From IMG/VR virus record IMGVR_UViG_3300018082_000009, positions 1,646 through 65,645 of that record: DNA of 64,000 nucleotides. The stretch is one strand, 5' to 3'. Below the pieces are notes generated by a model. The model had not been told where the DNA came from and did not search any database. It was given only the letters and a program-made list of their open reading frames with translations. The position numbers and the translations under genes were made by a program. This document shows positions 1,436-29,748 of the stretch, in pieces (the stretch's first letter is position 1; the number at the start of each line of letters is the position of its first letter). The stretch comes from a virus.

Positions 1436-3391
1436 ATGCAATTCTTCTCATTCGGATTCGGCAACGAAGGCACAGGGTCTGTCGATGAACTCGGCGGCAA
1501 GGGTGCGGGCCTCCTGTGGCTGGCCAAGGAAGGCGTCCCGGTTCCTCCGGGGTTCGTCATCCCCACGTCGGTCTGGGCGGAGTACGACAAGAAGCCGAAG
1601 GGCACGATGAAGGCGATTGCCAAGGCCCTGCCCGCGTATCTCTACAAGCTGGAGGCGCACTTCGGCTATCTGCCGCTTCTCTCCGTCCGCTCTGGTGCCC
1701 GTGTCTCATGTCCCGGCATGATGGACACGATCCTCAACGTGGGGATCGATGACTCCAACGTGGCGGAGTGGGCTACTCGTCTTGGCCCGAAGTGCTTCGG
1801 TGATTCGTTCCAGCGTCTGGTCGAGATGTACGGCTCGGTGGTCAAGGGTCTGCGTCGGGAGTCGCTGAGTGGCACCCTGAAGGCTTCGCTGGAGTCTTAC
1901 GAGGCTCAGACGGGTGAGACGTTTCCCGCTGCCGAGGCGCAGTTGCTGGGTGCGATTGAAGCGGTCTTCAAGTCATGGGACAACAACCGTGCGGACGAAT
2001 ACCGCAGGATGCATGGCTACGACCGCTCGTGGGGTACGGCCGTCACGGTGCAGGCCATGGTCTTCGGCAACATGGACGAGCAGAGCGGGTCTGGTGTCCT
2101 CTTCACCCGGAACCCGGACACAGGCGGCATGATCGTCACGGGTGAGTGGCTTCCGAATGCACAGGGCGAGGATATCGTGGCGGGCATCCGTACTCCTCAG
2201 CCGCTGGAGACGATGAAGCTGTGGAGCCCGGTGGTCCACGATGCTCTGCTCGATACGGTCATCAAGCTGGAGAACCTGAAGCAGGATATGCTGGACATCG
2301 AGTTCACGATTCAGAGCGGGGCGCTCTATCTCCTGCAGGTTCGCAGTGGCAAGCGCAGTGCGACGGCGGCTCTGAAGATTGCGGTGGACATGGTCAAGCA
2401 GGGGCTGATTGATGCTCCGACCGCTGTGAAGCGTGTCTCAGCGAAGCAGTTCGACTTGGCCCAGATGGCCTCGATTGACCCGAAGTTCACCAAGGAGCCC
2501 GCGTATCAGGGCATCGGAGCCTGCTCTGGTGTGGTGACGGGCAAGCCAGTGTTCAGCCGCAAGGATGCAATTGAGTGCAAGGAACCCTGCATCCTCGTGA
2601 CGCACGAAACCACGCCGGATGATATCGCCGGAATGGCGGCAGCGGTGGGCGTGCTGACGATGGTCGGCGGGCTCACGAGTCACGCGGCAGTCGTTGCACG
2701 AGCGATGGACCGGGCCTGTGTCGTGGGCGTGGGTGCCTCTATCGAGGCGTTCAAGGACATCGAAGTCCTGAGCCTCGACGGAGCCACGGGCCGCATCTGG
2801 GCGGAGGTGGTCCCTATCATCAACGGGCAGACCAACGGGGTGGTGCGAGACTTCAACGCGCTGGTGTCGGATGCACTGGGCATCGTGCCGGTCATCTTCT
2901 CAGCCCCAGAGTATCCGATGAAGGAAGCCCTGCTCTACTTGGGCGACCAGATTCTGGACCCCATCAAGGCGGCGGAGACGGTGGTCAATGCCACAGCCAA
3001 GGTCGGCAAGCTCTATCTGGATCTGGTGCCCTCGACGGAAGAGACACGCTTCCTGAATCTCGTGACGGCGCACGACCACACGGCCAAGGTGCTGGACATC
3101 CTTCACGCGGTGATGCCCGATGGCAATGATGGTCTGGTGTTGGTGGTGAGTGACAAGTACGCGACCAAGTTCTCACGCATCGTGCCGGGTGCGGATCTGC
3201 GAAGCATCGTGATGTCAGGGGCTGAACTGGTCCTCGACGGGATCGATACGACGGACCCGGCCGTCCAGCGGGTGCTGGCGTGGCGGCAGGCGGAGGGTTG
3301 CACGGTGGTATCCATCGGCAAGTACCTCGCAGGTAGCAAGTCCATGATTTCAGTGTCGCAGGCACTGCAGGTTCTTGGGGAGGGTGCATAA
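1436..3391 (+). CDS. PPDK-like phosphotransferase: ATP-grasp and phospho-His swivel domains, lacking the PEP/pyruvate TIM barrel
   Basis: GGKGAGL, PVPPGFVI, LLSVRSGA, PGMMDTILNVG, AVTVQAMVFGN, SGSGVLFTRNP, NAQGEDIVAGIRTP, DIEFTI..LYLLQVR; GGLTSHAAVVAR (His at 2681). The last ~185 aa do not resemble the PPDK C-terminal barrel. Start placed at ATG 1436 by RBS. Confidence 0.9.
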   Translation: MQFFSFGFGNEGTGSVDELGGKGAGLLWLAKEGVPVPPGFVIPTSVWAEYDKKPKGTMKAIAKALPAYLYKLEAHFGYLPLLSVRSGARVSCPGMMDTILNVGIDDSNVAEWATRLGPKCFGDSFQRLVEMYGSVVKGLRRESLSGTLKASLESYEAQTGETFPAAEAQLLGAIEAVFKSWDNNRADEYRRMHGYDRSWGTAVTVQAMVFGNMDEQSGSGVLFTRNPDTGGMIVTGEWLPNAQGEDIVAGIRTPQPLETMKLWSPVVHDALLDTVIKLENLKQDMLDIEFTIQSGALYLLQVRSGKRSATAALKIAVDMVKQGLIDAPTAVKRVSAKQFDLAQMASIDPKFTKEPAYQGIGACSGVVTGKPVFSRKDAIECKEPCILVTHETTPDDIAGMAAAVGVLTMVGGLTSHAAVVARAMDRACVVGVGASIEAFKDIEVLSLDGATGRIWAEVVPIINGQTNGVVRDFNALVSDALGIVPVIFSAPEYPMKEALLYLGDQILDPIKAAETVVNATAKVGKLYLDLVPSTEETRFLNLVTAHDHTAKVLDILHAVMPDGNDGLVLVVSDKYATKFSRIVPGADLRSIVMSGAELVLDGIDTTDPAVQRVLAWRQAEGCTVVSIGKYLAGSKSMISVSQALQVLGEGA

Positions 3392-3392
3392 A

Positions 3393-3659
3393 ATGGCGCT
3401 CAGCATCGGAGTCTCAGTTGGGAGTAAGATTGATGTGGGGGGCCATATGCTGCACGTGAAAGCATTGGTCCACCCCAACGTCGTGGTGGTCACGCTGGAC
3501 CGGGGAGAAGAGATTGTCATCAGCGAGGCCAGAGCCGTGGAGATTCTCCCCGGCGTGAAAGTGCAGTCTGGGTCCGGGGGCAACCGGTTGGCCTTCCATG
3601 CGGCCAAGTCGATTCGGATTTCCCGTGTTGGGGAACCATCGACACCTAAAGGGGAATGA
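3393..3659 (+). CDS. small beta-rich protein, weakly CsrA-like
   Basis: N-terminus MALSIGVSVGSKIDVG and C-terminus RLAFHAAKSIRISR resemble the two ends of CsrA. Confidence 0.4.
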   Translation: MALSIGVSVGSKIDVGGHMLHVKALVHPNVVVVTLDRGEEIVISEARAVEILPGVKVQSGSGGNRLAFHAAKSIRISRVGEPSTPKGE

Positions 3660-3985
3660 CCGTGCAGATCAATGACAAAGTCCTGCGAGTGTTGCAGGCC
3701 GAGAAGATATCCGCAGATGAGTTGTACCACATGCTGGACGAGGTGGCGTTCACCTCTCTGCGGGGCTGCAACCGGCGCTACTTCCAGTGGCTGTTCCTCG
3801 TGAAGGACAACGTCCTGCAGGACATGCAGCGAGTAGAATTGGTGGAGGTGGGCCGAGGCCCCCATCGCATGCTGGAGGAGCACGAGCCGTGTAACGGCGC
3901 AGGCTGTAGATCCTGTGGCTGGATCGGGTCCGTGTCGCGGGCCATCGAGGATACGACCGAGCGAGCGATGCACGCGGCTCGTTGA
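3656..3985 (+). CDS. hypothetical protein with C-terminal Cys cluster (CNGAGCRSCGWIG)
   Basis: Overlapping start/stop with the upstream gene; GGGGA RBS. Confidence 0.7.
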   Translation: MTVQINDKVLRVLQAEKISADELYHMLDEVAFTSLRGCNRRYFQWLFLVKDNVLQDMQRVELVEVGRGPHRMLEEHEPCNGAGCRSCGWIGSVSRAIEDTTERAMHAAR

Positions 3986-4011
3986 CAAATTCACAGGTGA
4001 CGTGGTAGGAT
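3982..4011 (+). promoter_or_regulatory. sigma70-type promoter P3
   Basis: TTGACA-18nt-TAGGAT with TG extension; followed by CAAGGAGTG RBS. Confidence 0.75.
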
Positions 4012-4044
4012 CAAGACCGGTCACAATCTCAAGGAGTGAGGCAG

Positions 4045-4524
4045 ATGGCGTTAGGACAGTTGAGAATCCCGCTGAACAGGCGGCAGTATTTCGTGGTGAC
4101 AGGCGGGCCGTTCTTCGATTGCCCAAAGACCATGGTCGGCGTCAAGATGGCGAAGGAGATTCGGCAGACGTGCGCTGTCGATATCCCGACCGAGGATTTC
4201 AAGACGCCCGACCGCAAGGTGCTCACCAGCGGGCTGGAGAAGGCCCTGAACCTGTTGTTGGACGGTGAGCCCCTGTATGTGGGCTGCATGGGCGGCAAGG
4301 GGCGTACAGGGCTCTTCATGGCGGTGCTGGCGAAAGCCTTCGGGGTCAAGAACCCGGTCGAGTACGTGCGGAAGCACTACTACGCACATGCGGTCGAGAC
4401 GAAGGACCAGTACGCGTTCGTGGAGCGGTTCCCCATCACCCCCGAGGTGCAGGCGAAGATCAAGCGGGCCAAGCGGTGGGCGTGGACCCGGTTCTGGAAA
4501 ACAAATCTGACCGATGCCGTTTGA
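4045..4524 (+). CDS. CX5R protein-tyrosine/dual-specificity phosphatase family protein 1
   Basis: LYVGCMGGKGRTGL P-loop; YVRKHY..HAVET.DQ tail; start at ATG 4045 after AAGGAG. Confidence 0.88.
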   Translation: MALGQLRIPLNRRQYFVVTGGPFFDCPKTMVGVKMAKEIRQTCAVDIPTEDFKTPDRKVLTSGLEKALNLLLDGEPLYVGCMGGKGRTGLFMAVLAKAFGVKNPVEYVRKHYYAHAVETKDQYAFVERFPITPEVQAKIKRAKRWAWTRFWKTNLTDAV

Positions 4525-4549
4525 CAAACGGTTCAGGTGCTGGTAAACT
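4521..4549 (+). promoter_or_regulatory. sigma70-type promoter P4
   Basis: TTGACA-17nt-TAAACT with TG extension; followed by TCCAAGGAGTGG. Confidence 0.8.
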
Positions 4550-4586
4550 CTCTGTAGTCACGTTTTTCCTCCAAGGAGTGGGGTTC

Positions 4587-5681
4587 ATGAAGTTTCTTCC
4601 AAACAATACGCTGGCGTACTTCAACGCGGCACCGCAGACGCACCAGCACAACCTGTCGGAACTGCCGACAGCGGTCTTCGCCCAGTCCACGCTGGAGTAC
4701 AAGAAGAATTGCGACCAAGCCTCTCCCAACAATGACGCCGTCTCGTTCTACACGCTGAACCACTGCGCCTCCATCGTCCGGAAGCTGTTCACGGCAAACG
4801 AACCGCTCCCGGCGTGGGCACAGTCGATCATGCAGACCTATACGGACGTGGCGATGGCACAGGGTGAGCGGATGTTGCATTACATCCTCTGCATCACGAC
4901 GCGTGAGACGCGTCACCTGAAGTCCTGCACCACGCCGTTCTGGAATCAGGTCAAGGCCAAGTGGGGCCAGCAGGGAGTGGACATCCTCCGGCACATCTCC
5001 AGCAATGGGGGCGAGGATACGGCGATGAACAAGTACCTCGTGACGCCACCGGACATCTCGATTGGCGACTACACGAAGCTCCTGTCCTACGCGTTCCACA
5101 ATGCGGGCCACTCCGGCTGGAGCGGCGGCTACGGCGGGCACCCGTGGGGCGACGTGACCGATGCATGCATTGCCATGCTGACGGGCGTCACCTCGATGGA
5201 GATGCTGGTGGATACCGGCTATACGCTGGCCCACAACGGTGGTCCCATCTTCAACAAGGGCATGATGTACTCGCATTACGACGGGCACTTCATGACCATC
5301 CTCGACGTGCAGAGGTCGGGGCAGATGCTGGACCTGATGTTCGAAACCCAGACGCTGGGCATCAAGAAAACGGTAGAGGCGGAGGGGGCAGCACAGTTGA
5401 TCAAGATGCACCGTCCACAGGAGTGCAAGGGGTATCTCGACTGGAAGCTGGTCGATGAACTGCGTCCCCAGAAGGACAAGGATTCGAATCCCGGCAAGTA
5501 CGCCGCGCAGACGAAGGCTCAGAAGCAGGCGACCGTGAAGCCGAAGGCTGTCAAGGCGGCGGCGAAGGCTCCGAAGGTCGAGCCCACAATGACGACGCTG
5601 CTCGGCAAGAAGGTCAAGGTAACCGGTGCGTGGAAGGTGGCCCCCCATCAGACCGTGACCGTGGTTGAAAGGGCGGAGTAG
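4587..5681 (+). CDS. hypothetical protein (GGYGGxxW and DxxxxLAHNGGPIFNK motifs; Lys/Ala-rich tail)
   Basis: 364-aa ORF with strong RBS directly after P4. Confidence 0.8.
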   Translation: MKFLPNNTLAYFNAAPQTHQHNLSELPTAVFAQSTLEYKKNCDQASPNNDAVSFYTLNHCASIVRKLFTANEPLPAWAQSIMQTYTDVAMAQGERMLHYILCITTRETRHLKSCTTPFWNQVKAKWGQQGVDILRHISSNGGEDTAMNKYLVTPPDISIGDYTKLLSYAFHNAGHSGWSGGYGGHPWGDVTDACIAMLTGVTSMEMLVDTGYTLAHNGGPIFNKGMMYSHYDGHFMTILDVQRSGQMLDLMFETQTLGIKKTVEAEGAAQLIKMHRPQECKGYLDWKLVDELRPQKDKDSNPGKYAAQTKAQKQATVKPKAVKAAAKAPKVEPTMTTLLGKKVKVTGAWKVAPHQTVTVVERAE

Positions 5682-5685
5682 TCAC

Positions 5686-6447
5686 ATGTCTGTATGGAAT
5701 TTCAAGGACAAGGGCGTCGATGACGCCTTCTCCGGCACCAACTTATCGGTGCGGTGTTACGAGTCGCACCCACGGTTGAAGATCGGCAAGGGCACGCTGT
5801 GCGGCGGGAGTGCCAGTTACCCGGTGGTGAAGGATGCCCACGTCTACGTGGCCCTGCAGAGCGGCAGCACCAGCGGGCGCATCTCGGACCCGTGGGAGAC
5901 GCAGACGGTGGTGGAGGTGCAGTACAGCATTCAGGACATGCACGCGCCCACCAACGTCACCCGGTTCAAGAAGATGATCACGTGGCTGTGCAATCAATTG
6001 CACGAGGGCAAGACGGTCCATGTGGGCTGCATCGGGGGCCATGGCAGGACCGGCACGGTGTTCGCGGCGATTGTCGCGGAGGCACTGGGAGAGAAGGACG
6101 CCATCCAGTGGGTGCGGAAGCACTACTGCAAGAAGGCCGTGGAGGCACGGGAGCAAGTCAAGTTCCTGATGAAGCACTACGGGGTGTCTGAGGCCGAGGG
6201 GGCGAAGAGTGCGCCCGCCGTCAAGTGGACGACCAAGCATGGCCTGAGCAAGCCCACAGAGGCCGTGGGCCTGTCCTTGGACGAGTGGGAGGCCAACATG
6301 AAGGCCAAGCCCAAGCCCAAGGAGAAGTCGTCTCCGGGGCGACGTGTGATACTCTCAGTGGGGGCGGCGAAGGCCACCAAGGCGTTCGAACCCATGGCTT
6401 CTGACCGGAGCCTGTGGAAGCTGAAGAAAAAGTCCAAGGCGGTTTGA
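5686..6447 (+). CDS. CX5R phosphatase family protein 2
   Basis: VHVGCIGGHGRTGT P-loop; WVRKHYCKKAVE..EQ; basic C-terminal extension. Confidence 0.88.
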   Translation: MSVWNFKDKGVDDAFSGTNLSVRCYESHPRLKIGKGTLCGGSASYPVVKDAHVYVALQSGSTSGRISDPWETQTVVEVQYSIQDMHAPTNVTRFKKMITWLCNQLHEGKTVHVGCIGGHGRTGTVFAAIVAEALGEKDAIQWVRKHYCKKAVEAREQVKFLMKHYGVSEAEGAKSAPAVKWTTKHGLSKPTEAVGLSLDEWEANMKAKPKPKEKSSPGRRVILSVGAAKATKAFEPMASDRSLWKLKKKSKAV

Positions 6448-6473
6448 CAAACCCGGAGACGACGTGTTACACT
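6444..6473 (+). promoter_or_regulatory. sigma70-type promoter P5
   Basis: TTGACA-18nt-TACACT with TG extension; followed by TCCAAGGAGTGG. Confidence 0.8.
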
Positions 6474-6506: not shown

Positions 6507-7502
6507 ATGCCAGTCACGATTAGTTCAGAGGCGCAGTTGGTGTTCTTCAACAAGGTTTTCGGGATCACGCACCCGGTGACCCTCAAGGCCAAGGTCTTGT
6601 TGACACAGGGAGTGGCGTTCGAAGTCTCCCTTTACAACGTCCGGGCACAGGTCAAGGGCAAGACCCAACAGGTCAACCTGACCTACGGGACGACGGCTCT
6701 GATGAAGGGCACGGCAGACGCCGTGGTCCTCTCGCAGAACAAGAAGCTCATCGAGGAATGGGTGACCGGGCTCTACGTGAGCATGGGTTCTCCGGAGGCC
6801 CAGAAGGCCACCCTGAAGGCACCTGTGCAGACCGCTCCGATTGCCTACAGAGTGGTCTTGCTGGGCGTGACGCACCCGCTGCCGCATCTTCTAAAGCTGG
6901 TCAAGGCGGTGCATTCGGTGACCGGTGGTACCGTGGCAGCGGCCAAGAAGAAGGTCGATGATGCGGTGGCCGGAGCGACGGTGGAGATTGGCACGTATCC
7001 GTCGTTGGAAGCGGCGAATATCGCGGCGGCACCCATCACAGCGGCGGAAGGCCATCTGCAGTTCGTACCTCTGGTCCCTCCGACCGTGACGGTGGCCCCA
7101 CCACAGGTGGTGGGGGGTCCGGGTCCATATGCGTGGGCCAAGCCGGTGGACCAAGTCATCGACCTGAAGGCGGCGAAGGCTCTGGGCCAGAAGGTCCACG
7201 GCACGAGCACCGGCAGCGTGTATCACACGATTGCCATCAGCGAGCACGTGAAGGTGGCGGCACGGCTCTATACGACCGGGTCCATCTCGATCCGGGCGGA
7301 GTGGACGGACAATCCCACGGGTGACCTGAAGCTGCTCGCGGAAGCGGGCCTGCAGATGAAGCCCAGCTACGGCAGCATCCATTTCGACGCGCAGGACGTG
7401 CCGCTCCAGCGGGTCATCGGGGCCTTCCTGCTCGGCACGGGCATCGAGTGGCAGCAAGTGGTGACCAAGGGTGCGGATCTGGTCATCGGGGAATACAAGT
7501 GA
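6507..7502 (+). CDS. hypothetical protein with an internal ribosomal L7/L12 C-terminal-like domain
   Basis: LLKLVKAVHSVTGGTVAAAKKKVDD...LEAANIAAAPITAAEGHLQFV (~6860-7070) resembles the L7/L12 CTD pattern. Confidence 0.55.
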   Translation: MPVTISSEAQLVFFNKVFGITHPVTLKAKVLLTQGVAFEVSLYNVRAQVKGKTQQVNLTYGTTALMKGTADAVVLSQNKKLIEEWVTGLYVSMGSPEAQKATLKAPVQTAPIAYRVVLLGVTHPLPHLLKLVKAVHSVTGGTVAAAKKKVDDAVAGATVEIGTYPSLEAANIAAAPITAAEGHLQFVPLVPPTVTVAPPQVVGGPGPYAWAKPVDQVIDLKAAKALGQKVHGTSTGSVYHTIAISEHVKVAARLYTTGSISIRAEWTDNPTGDLKLLAEAGLQMKPSYGSIHFDAQDVPLQRVIGAFLLGTGIEWQQVVTKGADLVIGEYK

Positions 7503-8426: not shown

Positions 8427-10805
8427 ATGCTCGTCATCTGGTCCAAAGCTGCGCCTGCGAAAGTCTTGAAGAGCCTGTCCCCGGTCCTCCGGACAGTGCC
8501 CAATCTGAACGTGACGGTGTCCAACGGGTACGAGGTGCCGGAGGGCACCACCACCATCCTCGCACTCGGCTCAGATGCCCTGAAGCAACTCCAGACAGAG
8601 AAGATCGTCGCCAAGAACCGGACTATGACTTCCTTCCGCACGCTCCCCCAGATGCGCGGGGGCGTGCCGGTCCTTATCAGCTACAGCCCAGATATCGGAG
8701 AGATTGACCACGGCTATTACGTGGACCTCCTGACGGATGTCAGCCTCTCCATTCGCTATTGCCTCACCGGGAAGTGGCAACCCTCCTACGGCAAGTACCG
8801 CTACGTCCATGACTTCTCGGAGTTGTGTGCGGACATCCAGCAGCAATACCAAGACACTGAAGACCCGGTGGATGTGGCGATGGACTTGGAAACGCTGGGC
8901 CTTGACCCTTATGCAGAGCCATCACTGGTGCCTCCCTACCCCGGTGCCTACATTGTCAGTATGCAGGCGTCGTGTCGGTATGGCACGGCTGATGTGGTCC
9001 GGTTCGTAGACCGCATGCACGAGAGCCAGCGGCTGTCAGACTCAGCCTTCCGAGAGCAGATTGAATTCTTGCTCAACTGTCCCTATGTGCGGCTGAAGGG
9101 GGCCAATTTCAAGTACGACCTCCACTGGCTCTGGAGGCGTGGTGCATTCAAGTGCAGCACGTTCAGCTTCGACACCACCATTGTGGGCTCGTTGCTCGAT
9201 GAGAACCGGAGTAACGCCCTCGATGTCCACGTCAAGATTTACGCCCCGTCGTTGGGCGGCTACAGCGATACCTTCGACCGCACGGTGAAGAAGGATCGGA
9301 TGGACAAGGTACCACCGGACCAACTCCTGCCCTATGCTGGTGGCGACGTGGATGGGGATCTGCAAGTCGCCTCTGCCATGAAACAGGAACTGTTGCGTGA
9401 CCAGAAGCTCACCAGTTTCTACGTGAACATTCTTCATCCCGCTGCCCGCGCCTTTGAGTGGGTGGAGCAGGGTGGCATCCTCGTAGACAAGCAGGCGTAT
9501 GCGGAACTGAAAGCGGACTTGGAGGCGGAGCATATCCGTCTCGTGAAGGAAGCCAGTAAGATCATGGGTGGCCGCATCGTGGCGAAGCACGGGGATCCCC
9601 GGCGTCCCGGTGGCATGAACCTCACCAAGGCCAGCATGCTCTGTGACTTCATGTTTGGACCGATGGGTCTGAACCTGAAGCCCAAGATGTCCACGGAGAA
9701 GCCTGACAAGGATGGCATCCAACGGCCCAGCACCGCCATGCAGCATCTGGAGATGTTCGCAAACGTGCCGGAGGCCAAGGCATTCATCGACATCATCCGG
9801 CAGGACAGTGGCGTGATGAAGACCCTCAACACCTATGTGGTGGGGTTCCTTAGTCATCTCCGCTCCGATGGTCGTTACCACCCGAACTACTACCTCTACG
9901 TGGGCAATCAGGAGGAGGGTGAAGGAGGAGCCAAGACCGGTCGTCTGTCTTGCAAGGCTCCTGCATTCCAGACCGTCCCCAAACACACCTTTTGGGCTCA
10001 GCGCATCCGGCGTTGTTTCCCCGCTCCTCCCGGATATGTCGTCGTGGAGCGGGACTATAGTCAAGGTGAACTGCGTGTAATTGCCTGTATCGCGGATGAG
10101 ACAAACATGATCGCTGCCTACAAGGCCGGTCGTGATTTGCACATCGAGACAGCGGCACCGTTCGCTGGGTTCACCTACGAGAGTCTGGTGGCACTGGAGA
10201 AGACGGACTTACACACGTTCGAAGAAACCCGGCAGCTTGGCAAGGCGGGAAACTTCGGACTGGTCTTCGGGATGCGAGAAGACGGATTCGTGGTCTATGC
10301 CCGTGTCAACTATGGCGTGAACCTGTCGTGGGAAGACGCACACACGTTCCGAAACACGTTCTTCAAGAAGTATCCACGGTTGTTGGGGTATCACACGGCG
10401 TACAAGGACTTCGCTAAGCAGAACCGGTTCGTCAGGACACCGCTGGGGCGCATCCGGCATCTGCCGCTGATCAAGTCTCCCAACCAAGAGGTGGCGTCGA
10501 AGGCGGAGCGGCAGGCCATCAACAGCCCTGTGCAGGGGACGTTGACGGACATGGTTCTCTGGACCATCGGGCTGGAGCATAAGTCTGGACTCTCAGAGAT
10601 TGCTCCGTGCTTCGGTGCGTGTCACGATAGTATCCTCAACTATGTGCCGGAGGATCGAGTCGATGAGATTGTGACCAAGCAACTGGAGCAAATGGAGAAC
10701 CTGCCCTTCAATAAGGTCGAGTGGACTCCCCAGTTGAAGTTCGTAGCGGACGCCAAGTTTGGACAGAACTGGGGTGCGCTGCAGAAATTCCAGAGGTCGT
10801 CATGA
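8427..10805 (+). CDS. polA: family A DNA polymerase with 3'-5' exonuclease and N-terminal UDG-like remnant
   Basis: Exo motifs MDLETLG, NFKYDLHWL, YAGGD; Pol motifs KTGRLSC, DYSQGELRV, RQLGKAGNFGLVFG, CHDSI. Confidence 0.95.
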   Translation: MLVIWSKAAPAKVLKSLSPVLRTVPNLNVTVSNGYEVPEGTTTILALGSDALKQLQTEKIVAKNRTMTSFRTLPQMRGGVPVLISYSPDIGEIDHGYYVDLLTDVSLSIRYCLTGKWQPSYGKYRYVHDFSELCADIQQQYQDTEDPVDVAMDLETLGLDPYAEPSLVPPYPGAYIVSMQASCRYGTADVVRFVDRMHESQRLSDSAFREQIEFLLNCPYVRLKGANFKYDLHWLWRRGAFKCSTFSFDTTIVGSLLDENRSNALDVHVKIYAPSLGGYSDTFDRTVKKDRMDKVPPDQLLPYAGGDVDGDLQVASAMKQELLRDQKLTSFYVNILHPAARAFEWVEQGGILVDKQAYAELKADLEAEHIRLVKEASKIMGGRIVAKHGDPRRPGGMNLTKASMLCDFMFGPMGLNLKPKMSTEKPDKDGIQRPSTAMQHLEMFANVPEAKAFIDIIRQDSGVMKTLNTYVVGFLSHLRSDGRYHPNYYLYVGNQEEGEGGAKTGRLSCKAPAFQTVPKHTFWAQRIRRCFPAPPGYVVVERDYSQGELRVIACIADETNMIAAYKAGRDLHIETAAPFAGFTYESLVALEKTDLHTFEETRQLGKAGNFGLVFGMREDGFVVYARVNYGVNLSWEDAHTFRNTFFKKYPRLLGYHTAYKDFAKQNRFVRTPLGRIRHLPLIKSPNQEVASKAERQAINSPVQGTLTDMVLWTIGLEHKSGLSEIAPCFGACHDSILNYVPEDRVDEIVTKQLEQMENLPFNKVEWTPQLKFVADAKFGQNWGALQKFQRSS

Positions 10806-15427: not shown

Positions 15428-17287
15428 ATGCTGAAGTTGACGGAAGGCACCCAGAAAACGGAGCGGCCGGAGCCTAAGATCACGTTCATTCAGAAGGTCA
15501 TCAAGAATGAAACGTGGATGGTCATGGCGCAGTCGGCGGTGGAACTGGAGGATGAATTCTCCAGCCTCTATTACACCGCAGGCCAACAGAACAACCTCTT
15601 CCTCCAGCCCCCCTTCGAACCCAATGTCCTATTGAGTCTCGTCCAGACGAACAACGTCCTGAACCAGTGCATCGAAGCGATGGAAGTGAACATCGACAGC
15701 ACAGGTCACGAGTTCGTTCCGACCGAGGAGGGCAAGGATATCGACAAGTCCGAGGAGAAGATTGCCCAGTCCTTCTTCGATGAGCCCTACCCCAACACCT
15801 CCATGACAGAAATCCGGCGCAAGCTCCGCCGCCAGATGGAATCCATCGGCTATGGGTTCATCGAGGTGCTGCGGAATGTGGCCGGGGATGTCGTGGGTAT
15901 GCGGAGCGTAGAGACAGCCCACATCCGGATGGTGAAGCTGGACAAGCCCATTCAGGTGAAGAAGAAGGTCGAGCGGGATGGGAAGGAAGTGGAGTTGACG
16001 CTCTGGGAGCGTGAACGGCGCTTCGCTCAGACCGTGGCCCTGAACCAGTTGGTGTATTACCGTGAATTTGGCACAACCCGAGAGGTCCACCGGGACACCG
16101 GGGAGTGGGAGACGGAGGAGAAGAAAGTCCCGCCTGAGAAGCGGGGGTCGGAGTTGCTGCTGTTTGGTATCAACCCCGATATCACCACACCGTATTATCT
16201 CCCCCGTTGGATCAACCAACTGCCATCGGTTATAGGCTCCAGAGCCGCAGAGGAACAGAACCTGCAGTTCTTGGATGCCGGAGGTCTACCGCCCGCTATT
16301 GTCTTCATTCAGGGAGGCACGCTGATCAAGGACACATCCGACCAGCTACGGATGTACCTATCAGGTCTGAACAAGAACAAGAACCGGGCGGTAGTCGTTG
16401 AGGTCCAGTCCTCCAGTGGTTCGCTGGATGCGGCTGGCAAAGTGGATGTGAAGGTCGAACGCTTCGGCTCTGCTCAGAGTCAGGATGCGATGTTCACGAC
16501 CTACGATGAGACGACCAAGGAGCACATCCGCATCGGCTTCCGTCTCCCCCCGCTCTTTCTTGGCTATGCAGCGGACTACAACTTCGCTACGGCCCAGACC
16601 AGCTACATGGTGGCCGAGGCACAGGTCTTCCTCCCCGAGCGCACGGAATTCGATGAGGTGATGAACAAGACCATCATCAAGGAACTGAAGCTCAAGACGC
16701 TCCTGTACAACTCCAAGCCCATCACCCTGAAGGATGTCGCCACGCAGTTGCAGGGGTTGGAATTGGCCATGACCGTCGCCACGCGTGAATCCTTCCTGAA
16801 GGAGATGAATACCATCACCACGATGAATTTGGAGATGGCGGAAGTCCCGGCACAGGGTGCGGGCGACATGCATGAACCGCTGAAGAACACGCCAACCGCT
16901 GATGAGACGCCGTCTGGAGAACTACCCGCTGCGATGGAGTCGGTGCAACCCGCACTCAAGCCTGCTCCTCCGGAGAAGAAGGACGGACCCAAGGAAGTCG
17001 GGGCTATGGAAGAAGCCAAGGCTATGGCACGGGAGAAGGCCAAGGCCAAGTATCGCAAGGCGGCAGGCGATCTGATGTCTTTGGTGCAGGAGTACGCCAT
17101 CTATCAGGGCCTCCTCCCACAACTCGCACAGAAGCAGGAACTGACGGCGGAGCGAGCCGCAGAAATCAACCGTGACATCGAGACACTGACACCCGAGGAT
17201 GCCCGCGCCTTCAACAGTCTGTTGGCGATGTATGTCTTCGGGTCTGATGACGCAGACTTGTCGTCGCTGGTTGCGGCCACGAGATGA
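15428..17287 (+). CDS. portal protein, PBSX (XkdE-like) family
   Basis: L.PP....L..LV..N..L.QCI, GYGFIEV.R, YYLPRW, I..GFRLPPLFLG...DYNFATA; located at the start of the head module. Confidence 0.9.
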   Translation: MLKLTEGTQKTERPEPKITFIQKVIKNETWMVMAQSAVELEDEFSSLYYTAGQQNNLFLQPPFEPNVLLSLVQTNNVLNQCIEAMEVNIDSTGHEFVPTEEGKDIDKSEEKIAQSFFDEPYPNTSMTEIRRKLRRQMESIGYGFIEVLRNVAGDVVGMRSVETAHIRMVKLDKPIQVKKKVERDGKEVELTLWERERRFAQTVALNQLVYYREFGTTREVHRDTGEWETEEKKVPPEKRGSELLLFGINPDITTPYYLPRWINQLPSVIGSRAAEEQNLQFLDAGGLPPAIVFIQGGTLIKDTSDQLRMYLSGLNKNKNRAVVVEVQSSSGSLDAAGKVDVKVERFGSAQSQDAMFTTYDETTKEHIRIGFRLPPLFLGYAADYNFATAQTSYMVAEAQVFLPERTEFDEVMNKTIIKELKLKTLLYNSKPITLKDVATQLQGLELAMTVATRESFLKEMNTITTMNLEMAEVPAQGAGDMHEPLKNTPTADETPSGELPAAMESVQPALKPAPPEKKDGPKEVGAMEEAKAMAREKAKAKYRKAAGDLMSLVQEYAIYQGLLPQLAQKQELTAERAAEINRDIETLTPEDARAFNSLLAMYVFGSDDADLSSLVAATR

Positions 17288-22656: not shown

Positions 22657-24492
22657 ATGCCCCGGAACATGCGGCAATTGATTGCAACTGTCCGGGCCAT
22701 GCTCCGGCCCCCGTATGCCACGGTGCTCAAGTGGAGTGAGAGTCAGCCACGTGGCCCAAAGGGCTCTCCGACTGGTGGGCAGTGGGTGAAGGGTGGCGGG
22801 AATGCGTCGATGTACGGGACACGGATTCTTCCGTCGTCTACGGAAATTGATCGAATGCCGCAGGGCACCCCCAAAGTCATCGCTCGTGGGCGACACGCGG
22901 GGCGAGTAGGGCGAGAAGAGAGAGAACGCCGGGAAGAGCGTGAAGCAGCGGAAGCGAAGGCCAGTGGCGGGGTGGCTGGGTATGCCACCATCATGAATGC
23001 TCCCATGGGCACGGGATTCAAGAATCGCCCCCGAGCAGCGGGATTTGATCCCGCAAAAGTTGCACCACCACCCAAAGATCCTGTCAATAAAGAGGTATTG
23101 CATGCTCTCACCAATGCTGAGGTGAGTCGAGTAGTCAAGGGCCTCAATGACGGTGTGAACGTCTCCGTCAAGGTGGAGATGGACGACCCGAACCACACCA
23201 AGGCCGTGTACAAGCCAGAGGCCGGGGAGCAATGGGGTTCAGGCTTTGCCAACGGGCAAATCGAAGACTGCATTACCAACAAGGATTTCTCTCTCGCAGA
23301 GCGGGAGGCCATGGCTTCTGAGGTGGACCGAGCCCTTGGTCTAAAGTTGGTGCCCACGACGGTCCTCCGCACGTCTCTCGATGTTGAAGGTATGGATACC
23401 TCCAGTGAGAACGAGGTGGTCTGGGACACCTATGAACTGCGGGGGATGTACGACGAGTACAAGGAGAAGGCCCAAGAAGACGCCATGGATGCGGTCGGCG
23501 GCGAGATGGCTGACCTGTATCAGGAGGCCCAAGGCGAGCACGTCAAGGACATCGAGAACCGCGCCCAAGAGATGATGGACATCTGGAATGAGGAGGTCAA
23601 GGACTTCCCCGACGAAGGCCCCTACGGAGCCGTGGAGGAGCTACAGAGGCACCCCAAGCTCCCTATGGGGTCAGCCCAGTCCTTCAGGCGACAGGAGCCA
23701 CAGGAGAAGGCCCTGAACCCGCTGGAGGTGTTGGACGAGGCAGGCGTGGATGTCAGTGCAGGGATGAGCAACCACGAGAAGGACCGGGTCCGTGCCATCC
23801 TCCGCCAGCGGCTGGAGGAGGGGTATCAGGAACTAGCCGATGTGAGTCGGCAGGAAGCCCGTGACCACCTCGACTACGACCAGTGGATGGAAGAACATCA
23901 GGATACTGAAGGCCGGTTGTACGAGAGCAAGATCAAGACCTTTACCCGGTGGGCCGAGGATAACGGCTACAACCGGGGCGAGGGTGATTCTGATCGGGGA
24001 GACAGGAATTCCGAGGCCCCCCATCCCAATGGGGGTTCCCTCCAGCACTTCATCTCTGGGCTGGACGGGTATGGAAGCCCGTCCACGGATGACATCACCA
24101 AGCTGGCGGTGCTGGACTACGTTATCGGGACCATGGACCGCCACGGCGGCAACCTGATGTACCACGGGGATAGCCCAGTGGCCATTGACAACGGCTACAG
24201 CATGCCCGCCCCCAACGATCCGGATGAGCCCGACGACTTCACCTATCGGTCCCGTGCCGTCAGGGATTGGAGGGACGGAGGACGAGGGGTGGACGGTGTG
24301 TCTGAGGACCAGCGTGCGCCCATCCTGCAGGCCCTAGAAGCCACGGACTGGAAGGCACTGGCAGACCGCCATCCCAACATGTCTCAGGGGGAGCGAGACG
24401 CCTTCTTGGGGCGTGTGGAGCGTATGCGGGACGCTCTCCAGACGGATTTGGGCCTGTATCGGCTGTGGAAACAGCAGGATTTAATGGGTTAA
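22657..24492 (+). CDS. tagged PI3/PI4-kinase/HipA-like kinase with a large acidic insertion
   Basis: Tag at 22732; VYKP, EREAMA..VD..LG..LVPTTV, GSLQ, LDYVIG.MDRHGGN, IDNG. Confidence 0.85.
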   Translation: MPRNMRQLIATVRAMLRPPYATVLKWSESQPRGPKGSPTGGQWVKGGGNASMYGTRILPSSTEIDRMPQGTPKVIARGRHAGRVGREERERREEREAAEAKASGGVAGYATIMNAPMGTGFKNRPRAAGFDPAKVAPPPKDPVNKEVLHALTNAEVSRVVKGLNDGVNVSVKVEMDDPNHTKAVYKPEAGEQWGSGFANGQIEDCITNKDFSLAEREAMASEVDRALGLKLVPTTVLRTSLDVEGMDTSSENEVVWDTYELRGMYDEYKEKAQEDAMDAVGGEMADLYQEAQGEHVKDIENRAQEMMDIWNEEVKDFPDEGPYGAVEELQRHPKLPMGSAQSFRRQEPQEKALNPLEVLDEAGVDVSAGMSNHEKDRVRAILRQRLEEGYQELADVSRQEARDHLDYDQWMEEHQDTEGRLYESKIKTFTRWAEDNGYNRGEGDSDRGDRNSEAPHPNGGSLQHFISGLDGYGSPSTDDITKLAVLDYVIGTMDRHGGNLMYHGDSPVAIDNGYSMPAPNDPDEPDDFTYRSRAVRDWRDGGRGVDGVSEDQRAPILQALEATDWKALADRHPNMSQGERDAFLGRVERMRDALQTDLGLYRLWKQQDLMG

Positions 24493-26344: not shown

Positions 26345-26429
26345 GGGGCTGTGGCTTCTGACCCTCCCATTCTTCTTAGGCTGTGCTTTGTTCGTGACCG
26401 TGCGGGAACTGGTGAGACATGACTCCTGA
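26337..26429 (+). CDS. 30-aa single-TM peptide
   Basis: MAKGLWLLTLPFFLGCALFVTVRELVRHDS; overlaps both neighbouring genes. Confidence 0.35.
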   Translation: MAKGLWLLTLPFFLGCALFVTVRELVRHDS

Positions 26430-29400: not shown

Positions 29401-29748
29401 GCCACGTCTCTCGCCATCGGAGTGGCAGGCAATGCACCCTATTATGCTCAATTGGGTTTCCTCCCAGACGAATTGGAGTGGGACTCCCTCCGGCTCTATG
29501 CCCAAGGGCAGTTGGAGAGTGAGGTGCTGCAGCCGGTGTTGGCGTCATTGACGGCCGAGGACCGACTGCTCGTGGAGCATCTGCTCCAAGACCATTCACC
29601 ATGGGCGATGTCAGCCCTCGTGGAACTGCCCTTCACCTATGAAGGGAGGACCATTGGGGAGTGGTTATTTGCAGAGGCATCTGGCACGTGGGCGCTGGAT
29701 CTGACGGATGATTTGCTGGTGGCACAAGCCAGAGGACATCTCGCATGA
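26419..29748 (+). CDS. head polyprotein: ParB-like, unknown, 2H phosphoesterase, ParB-like, MuF (SPP1 gp7-type) core, GNAT-like tail
   Basis: NGRHRY (~26810); HLT (27529) and HCT (27769); DGHHHW (28375); AVLDGRTSQFC (28699) and PPYHPYCR (28915); YYAQLGF (29440). Confidence 0.85.
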   Translation: MTPEELLIDDHEFETPIYVSVQEFTRKWEEAKHRRDKAGRFADTASVTVGDRQIAVVKPRRAAKAGDVMVPLDVVRFDEEFQREEGFYLGVGGHGGIGNRYERFGQFIGQANSIEAAEVTVQENGRVGFTNGRHRYAWLRDQGLTSIPVAMTPESAKHAKRYGLLAPVKKAWDESQHPRDAEGQFTAQGLVALFAEGKSPTGAQILVSAEDWGYGSTKFILPSGKRLAHMQDTHAAAAHALGVDLDDVMRAGILRYTPGSGAEIGAPMTKAQAQHLVDSTIESGGNHPLFVDVFHGRERFAKVFDPDRTNANTVRNWVNSHFKVQKGEHAFGNTQIQIAPTSSAAMSLNMARDAISDDDVMASGKDVDPNHLTVRFGLLNEDLNKLRTFITEQTPFTAYVEGVELFPVSDHSDGAVPVVAVIESPELRDIEAEIGNYADFKEKSFPVYKPHCTLAYCKPEAAPKYKDLAVGGSFTVQSITISHQSGVLETIPFGMVAKREWTEAQHRRQPKGSAHGGEFVAGPKDALESMLHGEKVGIARGDVRKLLEKVLEQKEDPNLTHLQVEGMTIFGGEGLGIKREDMPQVPKVHRRQFLQEMEANGVKILEETVDPLTLKPTQKEIGARNVAEKLERYEKGGKVFPPLLVSSEGRILDGHHHWGMMAAFAVDVPEARVPIYRLMVSTKKALALMHAYNKKHGIERKALGQKKDPVSGRYVTPFVDFSQHGSQQLQLIASLNSSRLATWGFTAEAEVLGMARYKLTAVLDGRTSQFCRFIDGKIFNVPEARRKVIEVLEVQNPEDLRVVQPWPKQTRAAMAAYAEMSSAELTERGLHIPPYHPYCRTICRAIASSAGKVLSTVPTIPAEVEAFQQVTAADLKEMGVEATPEQVAQWNEHVGMTPVELLSKLSQLPPQEVMTKGQGVGTRPVTFDADGDIGFKVNGETPSGVEFKLNAILEPFTGTYYLTQAELLAGNPKAELQFLKTLFMNFIEMGMKSSATSLAIGVAGNAPYYAQLGFLPDELEWDSLRLYAQGQLESEVLQPVLASLTAEDRLLVEHLLQDHSPWAMSALVELPFTYEGRTIGEWLFAEASGTWALDLTDDLLVAQARGHLA

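Follow-up and report, generated by a model that had tools for sequence, protein, structure and literature searches.

The 64,000-nucleotide stretch of viral DNA analyzed here (the window; positions 1,646 to 65,645 of IMG/VR record IMGVR_UViG_3300018082_000009) carries a block of plus-strand genes that opens with a dikinase gene (1436-3391, 651 aa) and is closed by the gene of a family-A DNA polymerase (PolA, 8427-10805). Between them lie two small ORFs, the genes of two DSP-type cysteine phosphatases, PTP1 (4045-4524) and PTP2 (5686-6447), and two further genes, U364 (4587-5681, 364 aa) and U362 (6507-7502). Placing the start codons by the positions of ribosome-binding sites most likely gives ATG 4045 for PTP1 (159 aa) and ATG 5686 for PTP2 (253 aa); for U362, the most likely start by the same procedure is ATG 6507, which yields a protein of 331 aa and not 362.

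A search of the whole window for the promoter pattern TTGACA-N16-19-TAnnnT gave eight matches, all on the plus strand, versus 0.72 expected, and none of 100 shuffles reached eight. All eight read TTGACAAA, and TG precedes the -10 element in all except the match at 3982. Five of the sites, at 1289, 1362, 3982, 4521, and 6444, are inside the block, each just 5' of a gene. Two are located upstream of the kinase (1289-1317 and 1362-1391), both with a TG-extended -10, a perfect -35, and 10 of 12 consensus matches, and the others precede PTP1 (3982-4011), U364 (4521-4549), and U362 (6444-6473). PTP2 has no promoter-like site of its own. The block genes share the ribosome-binding leader AAGGAGTG, positioned 3' of these sites. 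The related promoters described in an earlier note on this DNA hold as a consensus match.

The N-terminal part of the dikinase (1436-2788) comprises an ATP-grasp domain and a swivel phospho-His domain of the pyruvate phosphate dikinase (PPDK) type, as indicated by the Pfam matches (PPDK_N, 1.2e-39; PEP-utilizers mobile domain, 8.4e-22) and by the 45-47.5% identity of residues 1-455 to genuine bacterial PPDKs. The kinase also matched phrog_18609 (1.2e-152). The catalytic residue H416 lies within GGLTSHAAVVAR, the motif TSHAAVVAR spanning residues 414-422 (window positions 2675-2701), and the two domains and the motif previously recognized in this protein were thereby confirmed. Among the PPDK-invariant columns, 115 of 282 are kept in at least 90% of 21 family kinases, including GGxTSHAAVVAR.

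In the phage literature, the gene is labeled "pyruvate phosphate dikinase", and a Vibrio phage homologue was modeled as PPDK (PMC12038007); on this reading the phage would carry a real auxiliary metabolic enzyme, a PPDK converting pyruvate and PEP into each other and so boosting host energy metabolism. The high identity of the N-terminal part to real PPDKs fits such a role. However, the PEP-utilizers_C family (PF02896) was absent from the kinase in the Pfam search, and only about 235 residues separate the His motif from the C-terminus, whereas the genuine PPDKs retrieved have about 430 there and the whole set of PEP-utilizers retrieved has 380-430. The tail after the motif was 179-296 aa long in 67 of 67 relatives. 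A search for PF02896 in five cassette-bearing genomes returned above the cut-off only proteins of ordinary PPDK, PpsA, or enzyme I size, as judged by size. Judging by its sequence, the cassette kinase is not a canonical PPDK and not a glycolytic auxiliary gene, in agreement with the earlier assessment based on the letters of the DNA.

The C-terminal ~200 aa of the kinase (2789-3391) were modeled by AF2 as a small beta/alpha, TIM-like domain with eight strands alternating with helices, the confidence being moderate (pLDDT 72). In a VIA search, the best match was the PEP-binding barrel of PEP synthase (9dae_A, Z 9.8), and the top matches were all TIM barrels, led by those of PEP synthase, PTS enzyme I, and PPDK; unrelated barrels reached Z 8.4. 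Foldseek returned no significant match for the model, and hhalign comparison gave a probability of 0.1-0.2, with no PEP-utilizer sequence signature. Since the leading VIA matches are all TIM barrels with the PEP-utilizers first, the domain looks like a shrunken barrel remnant (~200 aa versus ~290-340 aa in PEP-utilizers). Given the pLDDT, the Z-scores of related and unrelated barrels, and the Foldseek result, we consider it only probably a decayed PEP-utilizer barrel used as a docking platform. The earlier description of a novel ~185-aa domain replacing the pyruvate barrel is not supported by this TIM-like model; the modeling and fold search that had been suggested for the C-terminus gave a barrel-like fold that lacks the PEP-utilizer signature.

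Only four positions of the C-domain, G452, W455, P460, and D529, are conserved in at least 80% of 56 diverse members of the family, which argues against this domain as the substrate site; D529 is the sole one inside the barrel proper. In the close subfamily, the domain does retain the polar invariants Y501, D504, D529, R589, D607, and K635, so it may still have a local catalytic role. The domain itself is rare: among 1.84 billion representative proteins, only 25 contain it.

Inspection of 80 related viral loci revealed a conserved order on one strand: kinase, PTP1, U364, PTP2, (U362), and PolA. PTP1 and PTP2 were found in all 80 loci, the kinase in 73, and PolA in 74, most misses falling where the locus ends. 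PTP1 was always 5' of U364, and PTP2 was 3' of it except in a few end-truncated loci. PolA followed the cassette in the same orientation, and the six loci without a PolA match end no farther than about 1-2 kb from PTP2. U362 was present in 60 of the 80 loci. The annotations of phages DLP5 and RcZahn show the identical gene order, and U364 occurs in 39 isolate phages, with the same four host genera as the kinase carriers; the hosts of the cassette range from Vibrio to Acidobacteria. The co-occurrence of these genes in other phages, on which the earlier note had made its reading depend, is thus evident. PPDK (EC 2.7.9.1) and PEP synthase share with the cassette kinase the order of ATP-grasp and swivel phospho-His domains and a beta/alpha domain at the barrel position, but the cassette kinase gene is invariably accompanied by the genes of two phosphatases and PolA. 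Such obligatory company, U364 included, has no evident purpose in glycolysis, and the residues of the barrel are almost unconserved across the family. A metabolic PPDK is therefore highly improbable, even with a TIM-like C-domain whose best structural match binds PEP.

U364 has an all-alpha region (residues 1 to ~315) that a linker rich in K, A, and P joins to a small basic beta domain (residues ~334-362, pI 9.7). This protein, an unknown in the earlier note, has no Pfam family, and the aGPT-Pplase families also gave no match. Its AF2 model was of high confidence (pLDDT 91.6), fold searches with it matched no known fold, and by this model the all-alpha fold is new. About 24 residues, many of them polar, are invariant at pairwise identities of 30-40%, including R106, E107, R109, H110, G183, G184, W187, H216, N217, K224, D240, and Q242.

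A complex of kinase residues 340-651 with U364 residues 1-330 was predicted in three runs alongside three controls. The ipSAE was 0.80 (0.81, 0.80, and 0.77 in the individual runs), versus 0.00 for the best control; among solved complexes, 58 of 80 attain the mark used for this score, and among mismatched pairs, 2 of 110 do, a rough guide here, as own alignments were used. The contacts agreed between runs by at least 81%, and the partner pLDDT was at least 83. The predicted interface includes the H416 loop (residues 410-416) together with D529, Y501, G503, and D504. The predicted contact of U364 with both the phospho-His loop and the small barrel, combined with its ~24 invariant residues, makes this protein the probable provider of the acceptor site in trans. 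Thus, U364, which the earlier note had left as a bystander, becomes the best candidate for this function. Coverage of the barrel by a separate new-fold protein that meets the His loop would also set the cassette kinase apart from PPDK and PEP synthase.

Both phosphatases reported earlier in the neighborhood of the kinase were recovered at or above the Pfam gathering scores of DSP-type families, PTP1 with PTP-SAK (4.6e-9, 36.9 bits) and PTP2 with Tc-R-P (1.5e-7, 32.3 bits). PTP1 (pI 9.8, charge +12) contains the general-acid loop IPTEDFKTP (4183-4209) and the motif CMGGKGR (4285-4305), followed by TG; the corresponding motifs of PTP2 are IQDMHAP (5929-5949) and CIGGHGR (6028-6048), also followed by TG. 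PTP2 is extended at the N-terminus and ends in a Lys-rich tail (pI 9.6, net charge +16 for the protein), and its CIGGHGRTG is near-invariant among relatives. The Cys, Arg, Thr, and general-acid Asp of the D...C-x5-R-T signature are kept by both enzymes in the family loci inspected, and both are predicted to be intact, active cysteine phosphatases. The solved structures nearest to PTP2 are protein tyrosine phosphatases: the archaeal-type PTP 5z59 (7.4e-9), SsoPTP, and DUSP23.

Since DSP/PTP enzymes act mostly on proteins, the cassette may have a protein target. In such a phosphorylation system, the modified protein (a translation factor is one example) would belong to the host or the phage, with U364 as adaptor or relay and the DSPs as protein phosphatases. 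The protein tyrosine phosphatases closest to PTP2 fit this scheme, and PTS enzyme I provides a precedent, as its swivel His can phosphorylate a docked protein. A weak lead comes from U362, in which residues ~109-190 resemble the C-terminal domain of bL12 (Atlas structures, TM-by-hit 0.54-0.56), the ribosomal domain that recruits translational GTPases, but the resemblance rests on a low-confidence model (pLDDT 0.44); the protein has no Pfam match. Moreover, the conservation of U364, in which Arg, His, Lys, and aromatic residues are numerous among the invariant positions, resembles an enzyme pocket rather than a carrier, and we know of no PPDK-type dikinase that phosphorylates Ser, Thr, or Tyr. 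We therefore regard protein phosphorylation as unlikely.

The starch cycle of plants has the same parts list: the product of the His-swivel dikinase GWD (glucan, water dikinase) is dephosphorylated by two DSP-family phosphatases, SEX4 and LSF2. By analogy, the cassette could run a glucan or polymer dikinase cycle; alternatively, it could act on a small metabolite or defense signal, as rifampin phosphotransferase (RPH), built on the same chassis, takes small molecules. However, no carbohydrate-binding module or other Pfam domain of this kind was detected in any cassette protein, and the cassette differs from GWD/PWD in its phage replication context and in the apparent location of the acceptor site on a separate subunit. 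Accessory or anti-defense genes are not typically conserved so strictly across hosts as different as Vibrio and Acidobacteria, nor tied so constantly to PolA, and this group of explanations appears quite unlikely.

In our assessment, there is about an even chance that the block specifies a phosphotransfer system private to phages, with a split dikinase and its trans-acting acceptor subunit at the core. By homology, the ATP-grasp domain would load H416 of the swivel while converting ATP to AMP, the gamma-phosphate passing to Pi or water and the beta-phosphate staying on the His. The barrel, reduced to a ~200-aa docking platform without a conserved active site, would carry U364, which would sit against the phospho-His loop and supply the acceptor site in trans, as the predicted complex and the conservation suggest. 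From this arrangement, the swivel would pass the phosphate either to a substrate bound by U364 or, with U364 acting as a relay, to that protein itself. The product would be a phosphomonoester, since the general-acid Asp, which is required when the leaving group is an alkoxide or phenolate, is retained in both phosphatases; these enzymes would reverse the mark or strip it after a later step.

An analogy for such a transfer is PTS enzyme I, in which a swivel His and a C-terminal barrel scaffold likewise pass phosphate to a separately encoded docked partner. However, enzyme I lacks an ATP-grasp domain and takes its phosphate from PEP at the barrel, and HPr is a small carrier docking on the N-terminal helical subdomain, while U364 is enzyme-like, 364 aa long, and of unrelated fold. 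RPH likewise joins an ATP-grasp and a swivel-His domain to an acceptor site for a compound other than pyruvate, but its substrate domain lies between those two domains on one polypeptide, and RPH has no phosphatase partners. The cassette kinase instead has the PPDK domain order, with the acceptor site probably in trans.

The acceptor could be a nucleotide or nucleic-acid hydroxyl (a dNMP-type pool, or an end or site of DNA or RNA), coupled to the adjacent PolA. This is our leading guess, held tentatively and as the weakest part of the scheme. It is suggested by the cassette and PolA traveling as one unit, by the strongly basic character of the phosphatases, the U364 tail, and U362, and by the cluster of invariant Arg/Lys/His and aromatic residues in U364.

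The fixed position beside PolA and the basic proteins would also suit hypermodification of DNA bases, in which the dikinase would activate a base hydroxyl, as 5-hmdU DNA kinase does, with U364 and the phosphatases finishing a modification that protects from restriction. The DNA of DLP5 and DLP3 was reportedly uncut by most enzymes (PMC5834331, PMC7326821), and DLP3 has 68 SmaI, 18 ClaI, and 7 EcoRI sites reported as uncut. However, the DLP3 genome contains no site for 10 of the 15 enzymes tried, and 25-28 of the 64 palindromic hexamers have been purged in this lineage. Because of this purging, the evidence for modified DLP3 DNA largely reflects missing restriction sites, and the lineage DNA appears to be exposed to restriction and not broadly protected by base modification. 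The thymidylate-synthase/hydroxymethylase and TGT/DpdA families, through which known hypermodification routes start, were not found in four complete relatives, nor was the thymidylate-synthase family in DLP5 or RcZahn, while DLP5 and DLP3 hold other candidates (a methyltransferase, sugar-nucleotide genes, and a glycosyltransferase). The module of 5-hmdU DNA kinase and aGPT-Pplase resembles the cassette in combining a kinase with an all-alpha enzyme in a phage replication region. Nevertheless, that kinase is of the P-loop type, the module needs a thymidylate-synthase-like hydroxymethylase, which was not found in the cassette relatives searched, and the cassette lineage shows strong restriction-site avoidance. 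To our knowledge, active phosphatases belong to no known hypermodification route, and we judge this explanation decidedly unlikely.

The two small ORFs between the kinase and PTP1, both on the plus strand and without a Pfam family, are conserved in closer relatives. The first (3393-3659, 88 aa from ATG 3393, the ORF opening at TTG 3375) encodes a basic protein (pI 9.4) with a tblastn match in 31 of the 80 loci, each time located between those two genes, and the second (3656-3985, 109 aa) is present in 30.

The window takes up 64 kb of an IMG/VR viral contig that is 68.1 kb long and has an estimated completeness of about 59%. Its GC content is about 59%, essentially all genes lie on the + strand, and a tRNA scan of the 64-kb window found none. 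The kinase-phosphatase block is followed by genes for a family-A DNA polymerase (PolA, 8427-10805), and a portal protein (15428-17287), and by several genes for very large proteins. Further structural genes there encode a major-capsid-type protein (34502-35443), a tape measure, a major tail protein and other tail components. From this gene content, the source of the window is a large siphovirus. Near-identical DNA was found in 20 sequencing runs from at least 12 independent soil and freshwater-sediment studies, in all cases as contigs; none of the runs listed is an RNA run.

The earlier note had described a 651-aa kinase retaining the ATP-grasp and phospho-His domains of PPDK, and such a protein, with no PEP-utilizers_C match, is indeed encoded at 1436-3391 on the + strand. 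The PPDK ATP-grasp was recognized by PF01326 (PPDK_N; 1.2e-39, with 137 bits where the cut-off is 27), and the PEP-utiliser mobile domain (PF00391, 8.4e-22) carried the GGxTSHAA phospho-His motif. H416, located within GGLTSHAAVVAR, is invariant among relatives (TSHAAVVAR corresponds to aa 414-422). As in PPDK, the His domain (aa 382-452) comes immediately after the ATP-grasp, with the last domain behind it; this order differs from that of RPH, where the ATP-grasp is followed by a substrate-binding domain and a C-terminal His domain. Over residues 1-455, identity to genuine alphaproteobacterial PPDKs is 45-47.5%, and PHROG 18609, which bears the label "kinase," matches the whole length of the protein (1.2e-152). 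When 21 diverse kinases of the family were compared, 115 of the 282 PPDK-invariant columns proved to be retained in 90% or more of them; among these are the GMMDT loop, acidic and Arg/Gln residues in the ATP-grasp site, and GGxTSHAAVVAR. Because these residues are kept, the ATP/Pi half-reaction and phosphorylation of the histidine are very probably intact. The system works like other His-swivel dikinases (PPDK/PpsA, GWD, and RPH).

The kinase shares the ATP-grasp and phospho-His domains with PPDK but not the third defining feature of that enzyme, the PEP/pyruvate TIM barrel PF02896 (about 290 positions), for which no match was found in the window kinase. Over five cassette-bearing genomes, the PF02896 matches above the cut-off were all of ordinary PPDK/PpsA/EI size. 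The stretch after the His motif comprises 179-296 residues in all 67 relatives (about 200 aa in the window kinase, 2789-3391), versus 380-430 in the real PEP-utilisers fetched. Alignment of this C-domain by hhalign with E. coli PpsA, PtsI, and an eight-sequence PEP-utilizers_C profile gave probabilities of 0.1-0.2, also when the query was a profile of 56 sequences. Among 1.84 billion representative proteins, 25 matches were found, all of them proteins of the same architecture or their fragments; the C-domain is thus restricted to the cassette kinase family. An AF2 model built from 20 sequences (pLDDT 72) contains eight strands alternating with helices. Foldseek searches with the C-domain against PDB and Swiss-Prot models yielded nothing below an E-value of 0.01. 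In an exhaustive VIA search, the PEP-binding domain of PEP synthase (9dae_A) ranked first (Z 9.8, 183 of 200 residues aligned, rmsd 4.7), PTS enzyme I ranked second and seventh (Z 8.4 and 8.0), and maize PPDK ranked 18th (Z 7.7). Nearly all remaining entries were TIM barrels with Z of 7-8.4, and the margin of the top match is small. Despite this margin, the position of the domain in the chain makes descent from the PEP-utiliser barrel the economical reading, and the modelled C-domain likely derives from such a barrel that has lost its defining signature. Iterated searches connected 63 of the 67 kinase tails, and across the linked tails only G452, W455, and P460 of the linker, together with D529, are kept in at least 80%. 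Given so few conserved positions, the C-domain looks like a decaying scaffold rather than a conserved substrate site, although polar invariants are retained among C-domains of the close subfamily.

A kinase of this type has been treated in the literature as a PPDK auxiliary metabolic gene (PMC12038007). The carbon-metabolism "AMG" label is almost certainly wrong for the block.

Two CX5R phosphatases had been noted beside the kinase, and both are of the dual-specificity type and possess the C-x5-R(S/T) P-loop and an upstream general-acid Asp. In PTP1 (4045-4524), D54 lies in the general-acid loop IPTEDFKTP, and C84, R90, and the following Thr belong to the P-loop CMGGKGRTG; the corresponding elements of PTP2 (5686-6447) are D84 in IQDMHAP and C115, R121, and Thr in CIGGHGRTG. 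PTP1 and PTP2 exceed the Pfam cut-offs for PTP-SAK and Tc-R-P, respectively. The nearest solved relatives of PTP2 are small archaeal-type PTPs (5z59, 7.4e-9) and DUSP23. In the inspected related loci, both paralogues retain the general-acid Asp, Cys, Arg, and next Thr, with the family patterns IPTxDFxxP ... YVGCMGGxGRTGLF for PTP1 and I.DM.AP ... HVGCIGGHGRTG for PTP2. By established PTP enzymology, retention of the general acid points to phosphomonoesters rather than phosphoanhydrides as substrates. The phosphatases are unusually basic (PTP1, pI 9.8 and net charge +12; PTP2, pI 9.6 and net charge +16), unlike the kinase, for which an acidic charge was computed. In the records of the isolate phages DLP5 and DLP3, one or both of these genes are labelled "thymidylate synthase" or "thymidylate synthase ThyX," and PHROG 17568 carries the same "thymidylate synthase" label, while the record of the isolate phage RcZahn names tyrosine phosphatases. 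The former label is mistaken in DLP5 and DLP3; a thymidylate-synthase family domain is absent from DLP5.

The 364-aa protein reported between the phosphatases (U364, 4587-5681) was also found; it belongs to no Pfam family and matches phrog_20946, of unknown function. Among homologues with 30-40% identity, about 24 positions are invariant, including R106, E107, R109, and H110 (TTRExRH), G183, G184, and W187 (GYGGxxWG), H216, N217, and K224 (LAHNGGPIFNK), and D240 and Q242 (LDVQRSGQ). H59, E72, R95, E205, D209, and several aromatic residues are nearly invariant. Such a combination of basic residues (Arg, Lys, and His) with carboxylates and aromatics resembles a site at which a substrate bearing phosphate, or assisted by a metal, is bound. 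The confident AF2 model (pLDDT 91.6) has an all-alpha core, which a K/A/P-rich linker joins to a small basic beta domain. Searching the PDB with a profile of 45 homologues gave 0 matches at E-values up to 1, and Pfam searches over the same homologues revealed nothing consistent and no aGPT-Pplase family. The best Foldseek match to PDB had an E-value of 0.39, the best VIA-wide Z was 4.5, shape searches of the ESM Atlas gave TM of at most 0.30, and language-model look-alikes scored at most 0.80, which is chance level. In BFVD, only four unnamed viral proteins were matched (1e-14 to 1e-17), presumably of the same family. The top AFDB cluster, DUF5636 (4.7e-18), is a U364 family member, and four more clusters (2e-4 to 2e-2) are unnamed; nothing related was found in the literature on DUF5636. 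No solved structure or named predicted family therefore matches the U364 core.

Complex prediction for kinase residues 340-651 and U364 residues 1-330 gave an ipSAE of 0.80 (runs of 0.81, 0.80, and 0.77), whereas the best of three controls scored 0.00. In calibration, 58 of 80 solved complexes and 2 of 110 mismatched pairs reached the mark used; these counts apply approximately, since custom alignments were supplied for the present prediction. At least 81% of contacts recur between runs, partner pLDDT is at least 83, and recall of a memorized complex is unlikely since no similar one is known. On the kinase side, the predicted interface includes loop 410-416 (GGLTSH, with H416), Y501, G503, D504, D529, 538-546, and 637-645; D529 is the only one of the four family-wide conserved C-domain positions within the barrel proper. 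U364 would contribute its N-terminal 37 residues, N58, H59, 86-97, 189-217 (with E205, D209, T213, and N217), and Q242-G245. The model supports binding of U364 by the kinase. If it is right, U364 would cap the former active-site region and face the phospho-His, so that the acceptor site would be supplied in trans, with U364 as the predicted acceptor subunit. The likeness to PTS enzyme I and HPr is this docking of a partner, which here is a prediction.

The genes of the block had been said to have related promoters, which holds at the level of consensus matches: eight TTGACA-N16-19-TAnnnT matches occur on the + strand of the window versus 0.72 expected, all reading TTGACAAA. Five of the eight lie at gene starts in the block (1289, 1362, 3982, 4521, and 6444), each followed by a AAGGAGTG(GGG) ribosome-binding leader, the position of which indicates likely starts at 4045 for PTP1, 5686 for PTP2, and 6507 for U362, the conserved 331-aa protein encoded after PTP2 (6507-7502). 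Three more TTGACAAA / TG-extended -10 motifs are located outside the cassette (11092, 15032, and 61968), each 5' of a gene.

Co-occurrence of these genes in other phages was confirmed in 80 viral contigs with flanks, fetched by a U364-anchored search, in which the cassette genes were located by tblastn. PTP1 lies 5' of U364 in 80 of 80 loci, and PTP2 is likewise present in all 80, 3' of U364 wherever the flank allows. The N-terminal part of the kinase was found in 73 loci, PolA in 74, and U362 in 60; most misses are cuts at contig ends, and gene order and strand are constant where flanks allow. Among isolate phage records, 41 contain the kinase (34 from Vibrio, four from Stenotrophomonas, two from Rhizobium, and one from Rhodobacter) and 39 contain U364, in the same four host genera. 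The DLP5 and RcZahn records annotate the same cassette order, with the block just 5' of the portal gene, and in DLP5 it is far from the helicase, primase, and RecA genes. In about 185,000 bacterial and archaeal species, each represented by one genome, only nine cassette loci were detected, either on phage-sized MAG contigs of about 90-96 kb or inside much larger bacterial contigs, the latter presumably prophages. It is a phage-private module, passed on together with PolA as one block. An ORF directly 5' of the kinase (3-1121), with a weak ADPrib_exo_Tox match of the ADP-ribosyltransferase type (8e-5, below the cut-off), occurs in only 5 of the 80 loci and is therefore placed outside the core module.

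The fixed coupling to PolA, the basic charge computed for every partner protein, and the Arg/Lys/His/aromatic pocket of U364 lead us to favour, tentatively, a nucleotide or nucleic-acid hydroxyl as the acceptor, at ends or in a dNMP-type pool rather than in genome-wide base modification. Dual-specificity phosphatases (DSPs) usually act on proteins, and the middle segment of U362 (aa ~109-190) resembles the C-terminal domain of ribosomal protein bL12 in a low-confidence model (Atlas TM-by-hit 0.54-0.56), a weak lead that Pfam at E-values up to 5 did not recover. Both points count against a nucleotide acceptor; a protein acceptor is nevertheless considered unlikely. Phosphorylation of a glycan, metabolite, or signal would recall the GWD/glucan phosphatase cycle, but the carbohydrate-binding modules of that cycle (CBM45/CBM20/CBM48) were not found in any cassette protein (Pfam, E-values up to 0.01-5), and we regard such an acceptor as quite unlikely. 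In its fullest form, the nucleic-acid reading would make the kinase and U364 a new heteromeric dikinase with an acceptor subunit of an undescribed fold, phosphorylating a nucleotide or nucleic-acid hydroxyl (for example, at polynucleotide ends or in a dNMP-type pool) for PolA, with the two basic DSPs completing the cycle; this proposal is somewhat unlikely as a whole. If true, it would represent a nucleic-acid chemistry known from no virus or cell.

Hypermodification of DNA bases across the genome could be suspected from published digests, in which DLP5 DNA resisted all but 4 of 36 enzymes (PMC5834331) and DLP3 DNA resisted all 15 (PMC7326821). However, for 10 of the 15 enzymes applied to DLP3 DNA, the genome contains no target at all, and the sites present are 68 for SmaI, 18 for ClaI, 7 for EcoRI, 4 for NdeI, and 1 for XbaI. 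After this count, most of the weight of the restriction data as support for DNA modification was discarded, and the published inference of heavily modified DLP3 and DLP5 DNA is corrected. The uncut SmaI and EcoRI sites nevertheless point to some modification or methylation of DLP3 DNA. The whole lineage purges 6-bp palindromes, and the avoidance is extreme: the window lacks 25 of 64 palindromic hexamers versus 40 of 4032 non-palindromic ones, DLP3 lacks 25 of 64 versus 48 of 4032, a complete 117.5-kb relative 28 of 64 versus 22 of 4032, and the first 14 kb of RcZahn 8 of 8 versus 0 of 440. Such avoidance implies that the DNA is visible to restriction enzymes, which argues against a general bulky base modification. 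The known entry enzymes of hypermodification are absent as well: neither DLP5 nor RcZahn nor any of four 100%-complete relatives has a member of the thymidylate-synthase/hydroxymethylase family (PF00303), and the four relatives also lack the TGT/DpdA family. These cassette phages thus differ from carriers of thymidine hypermodification modules (5-HMUDK plus aGPT-Pplase) in lacking a PF00303 hydroxymethylase, and U364 homologues have no aGPT-Pplase match. No literature linking phage hypermodification and a dikinase was found. Genome-wide base hypermodification is decidedly improbable. A Pfam survey of 48 ORFs of the non-structural region of the 117.5-kb relative revealed no nucleotide-metabolism families; these ORFs include RecA, DnaB, a helicase, RuvC, an AAA ATPase, HNH, collagen-repeat proteins, and a protein with a RapZ C-terminal domain.

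The block is a real, conserved, and undescribed module: no published paper presents it as a system, and the RcZahn paper does not mention the cassette. The enzymology of its phosphate-donor half is clear, and an acceptor subunit acting in trans is predicted. New here are the structural assignment and decay of the C-domain, the controlled complex prediction placing U364 at the phospho-His, the reciprocal co-occurrence counts, and the site-count correction of the "modified DNA" evidence. The block is carried beside a DNA polymerase by a whole lineage of 80-120-kb siphoviruses, whose hosts include Vibrio, Stenotrophomonas, Rhizobium, and Rhodobacter and which also occur in soil and sediment metagenomes. 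If U364 does provide the acceptor site, a PPDK chassis would have been converted into a generic phosphate donor for an acceptor enzyme of a new fold. PPDK/PpsA, GWD, and RPH would then be joined by a fourth type of His-swivel dikinase, and U364 would define a new enzyme family. Cultivable carriers exist (DLP5, DLP3, RcZahn, and many Vibrio phages), which makes these predictions directly testable.

Within the block, a CsrA-like identity considered for an 88-aa ORF (3393-3659) had no Pfam support at E-values up to 5. Elsewhere in the window, a 611-aa protein (22657-24492), encoded among the very large genes that follow the portal, matches PI3_PI4_kinase above the gathering score (Pfam, 3.7e-8, 34 bits), which is unusual in a phage. 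An 1109-aa protein (26419-29748) has a minor-head (MuF/SPP1 gp7-like) region in addition to a 2H phosphoesterase / 2'-5' RNA ligase-like domain and a weak PFIN match, and may be a multidomain effector carried in the virion.
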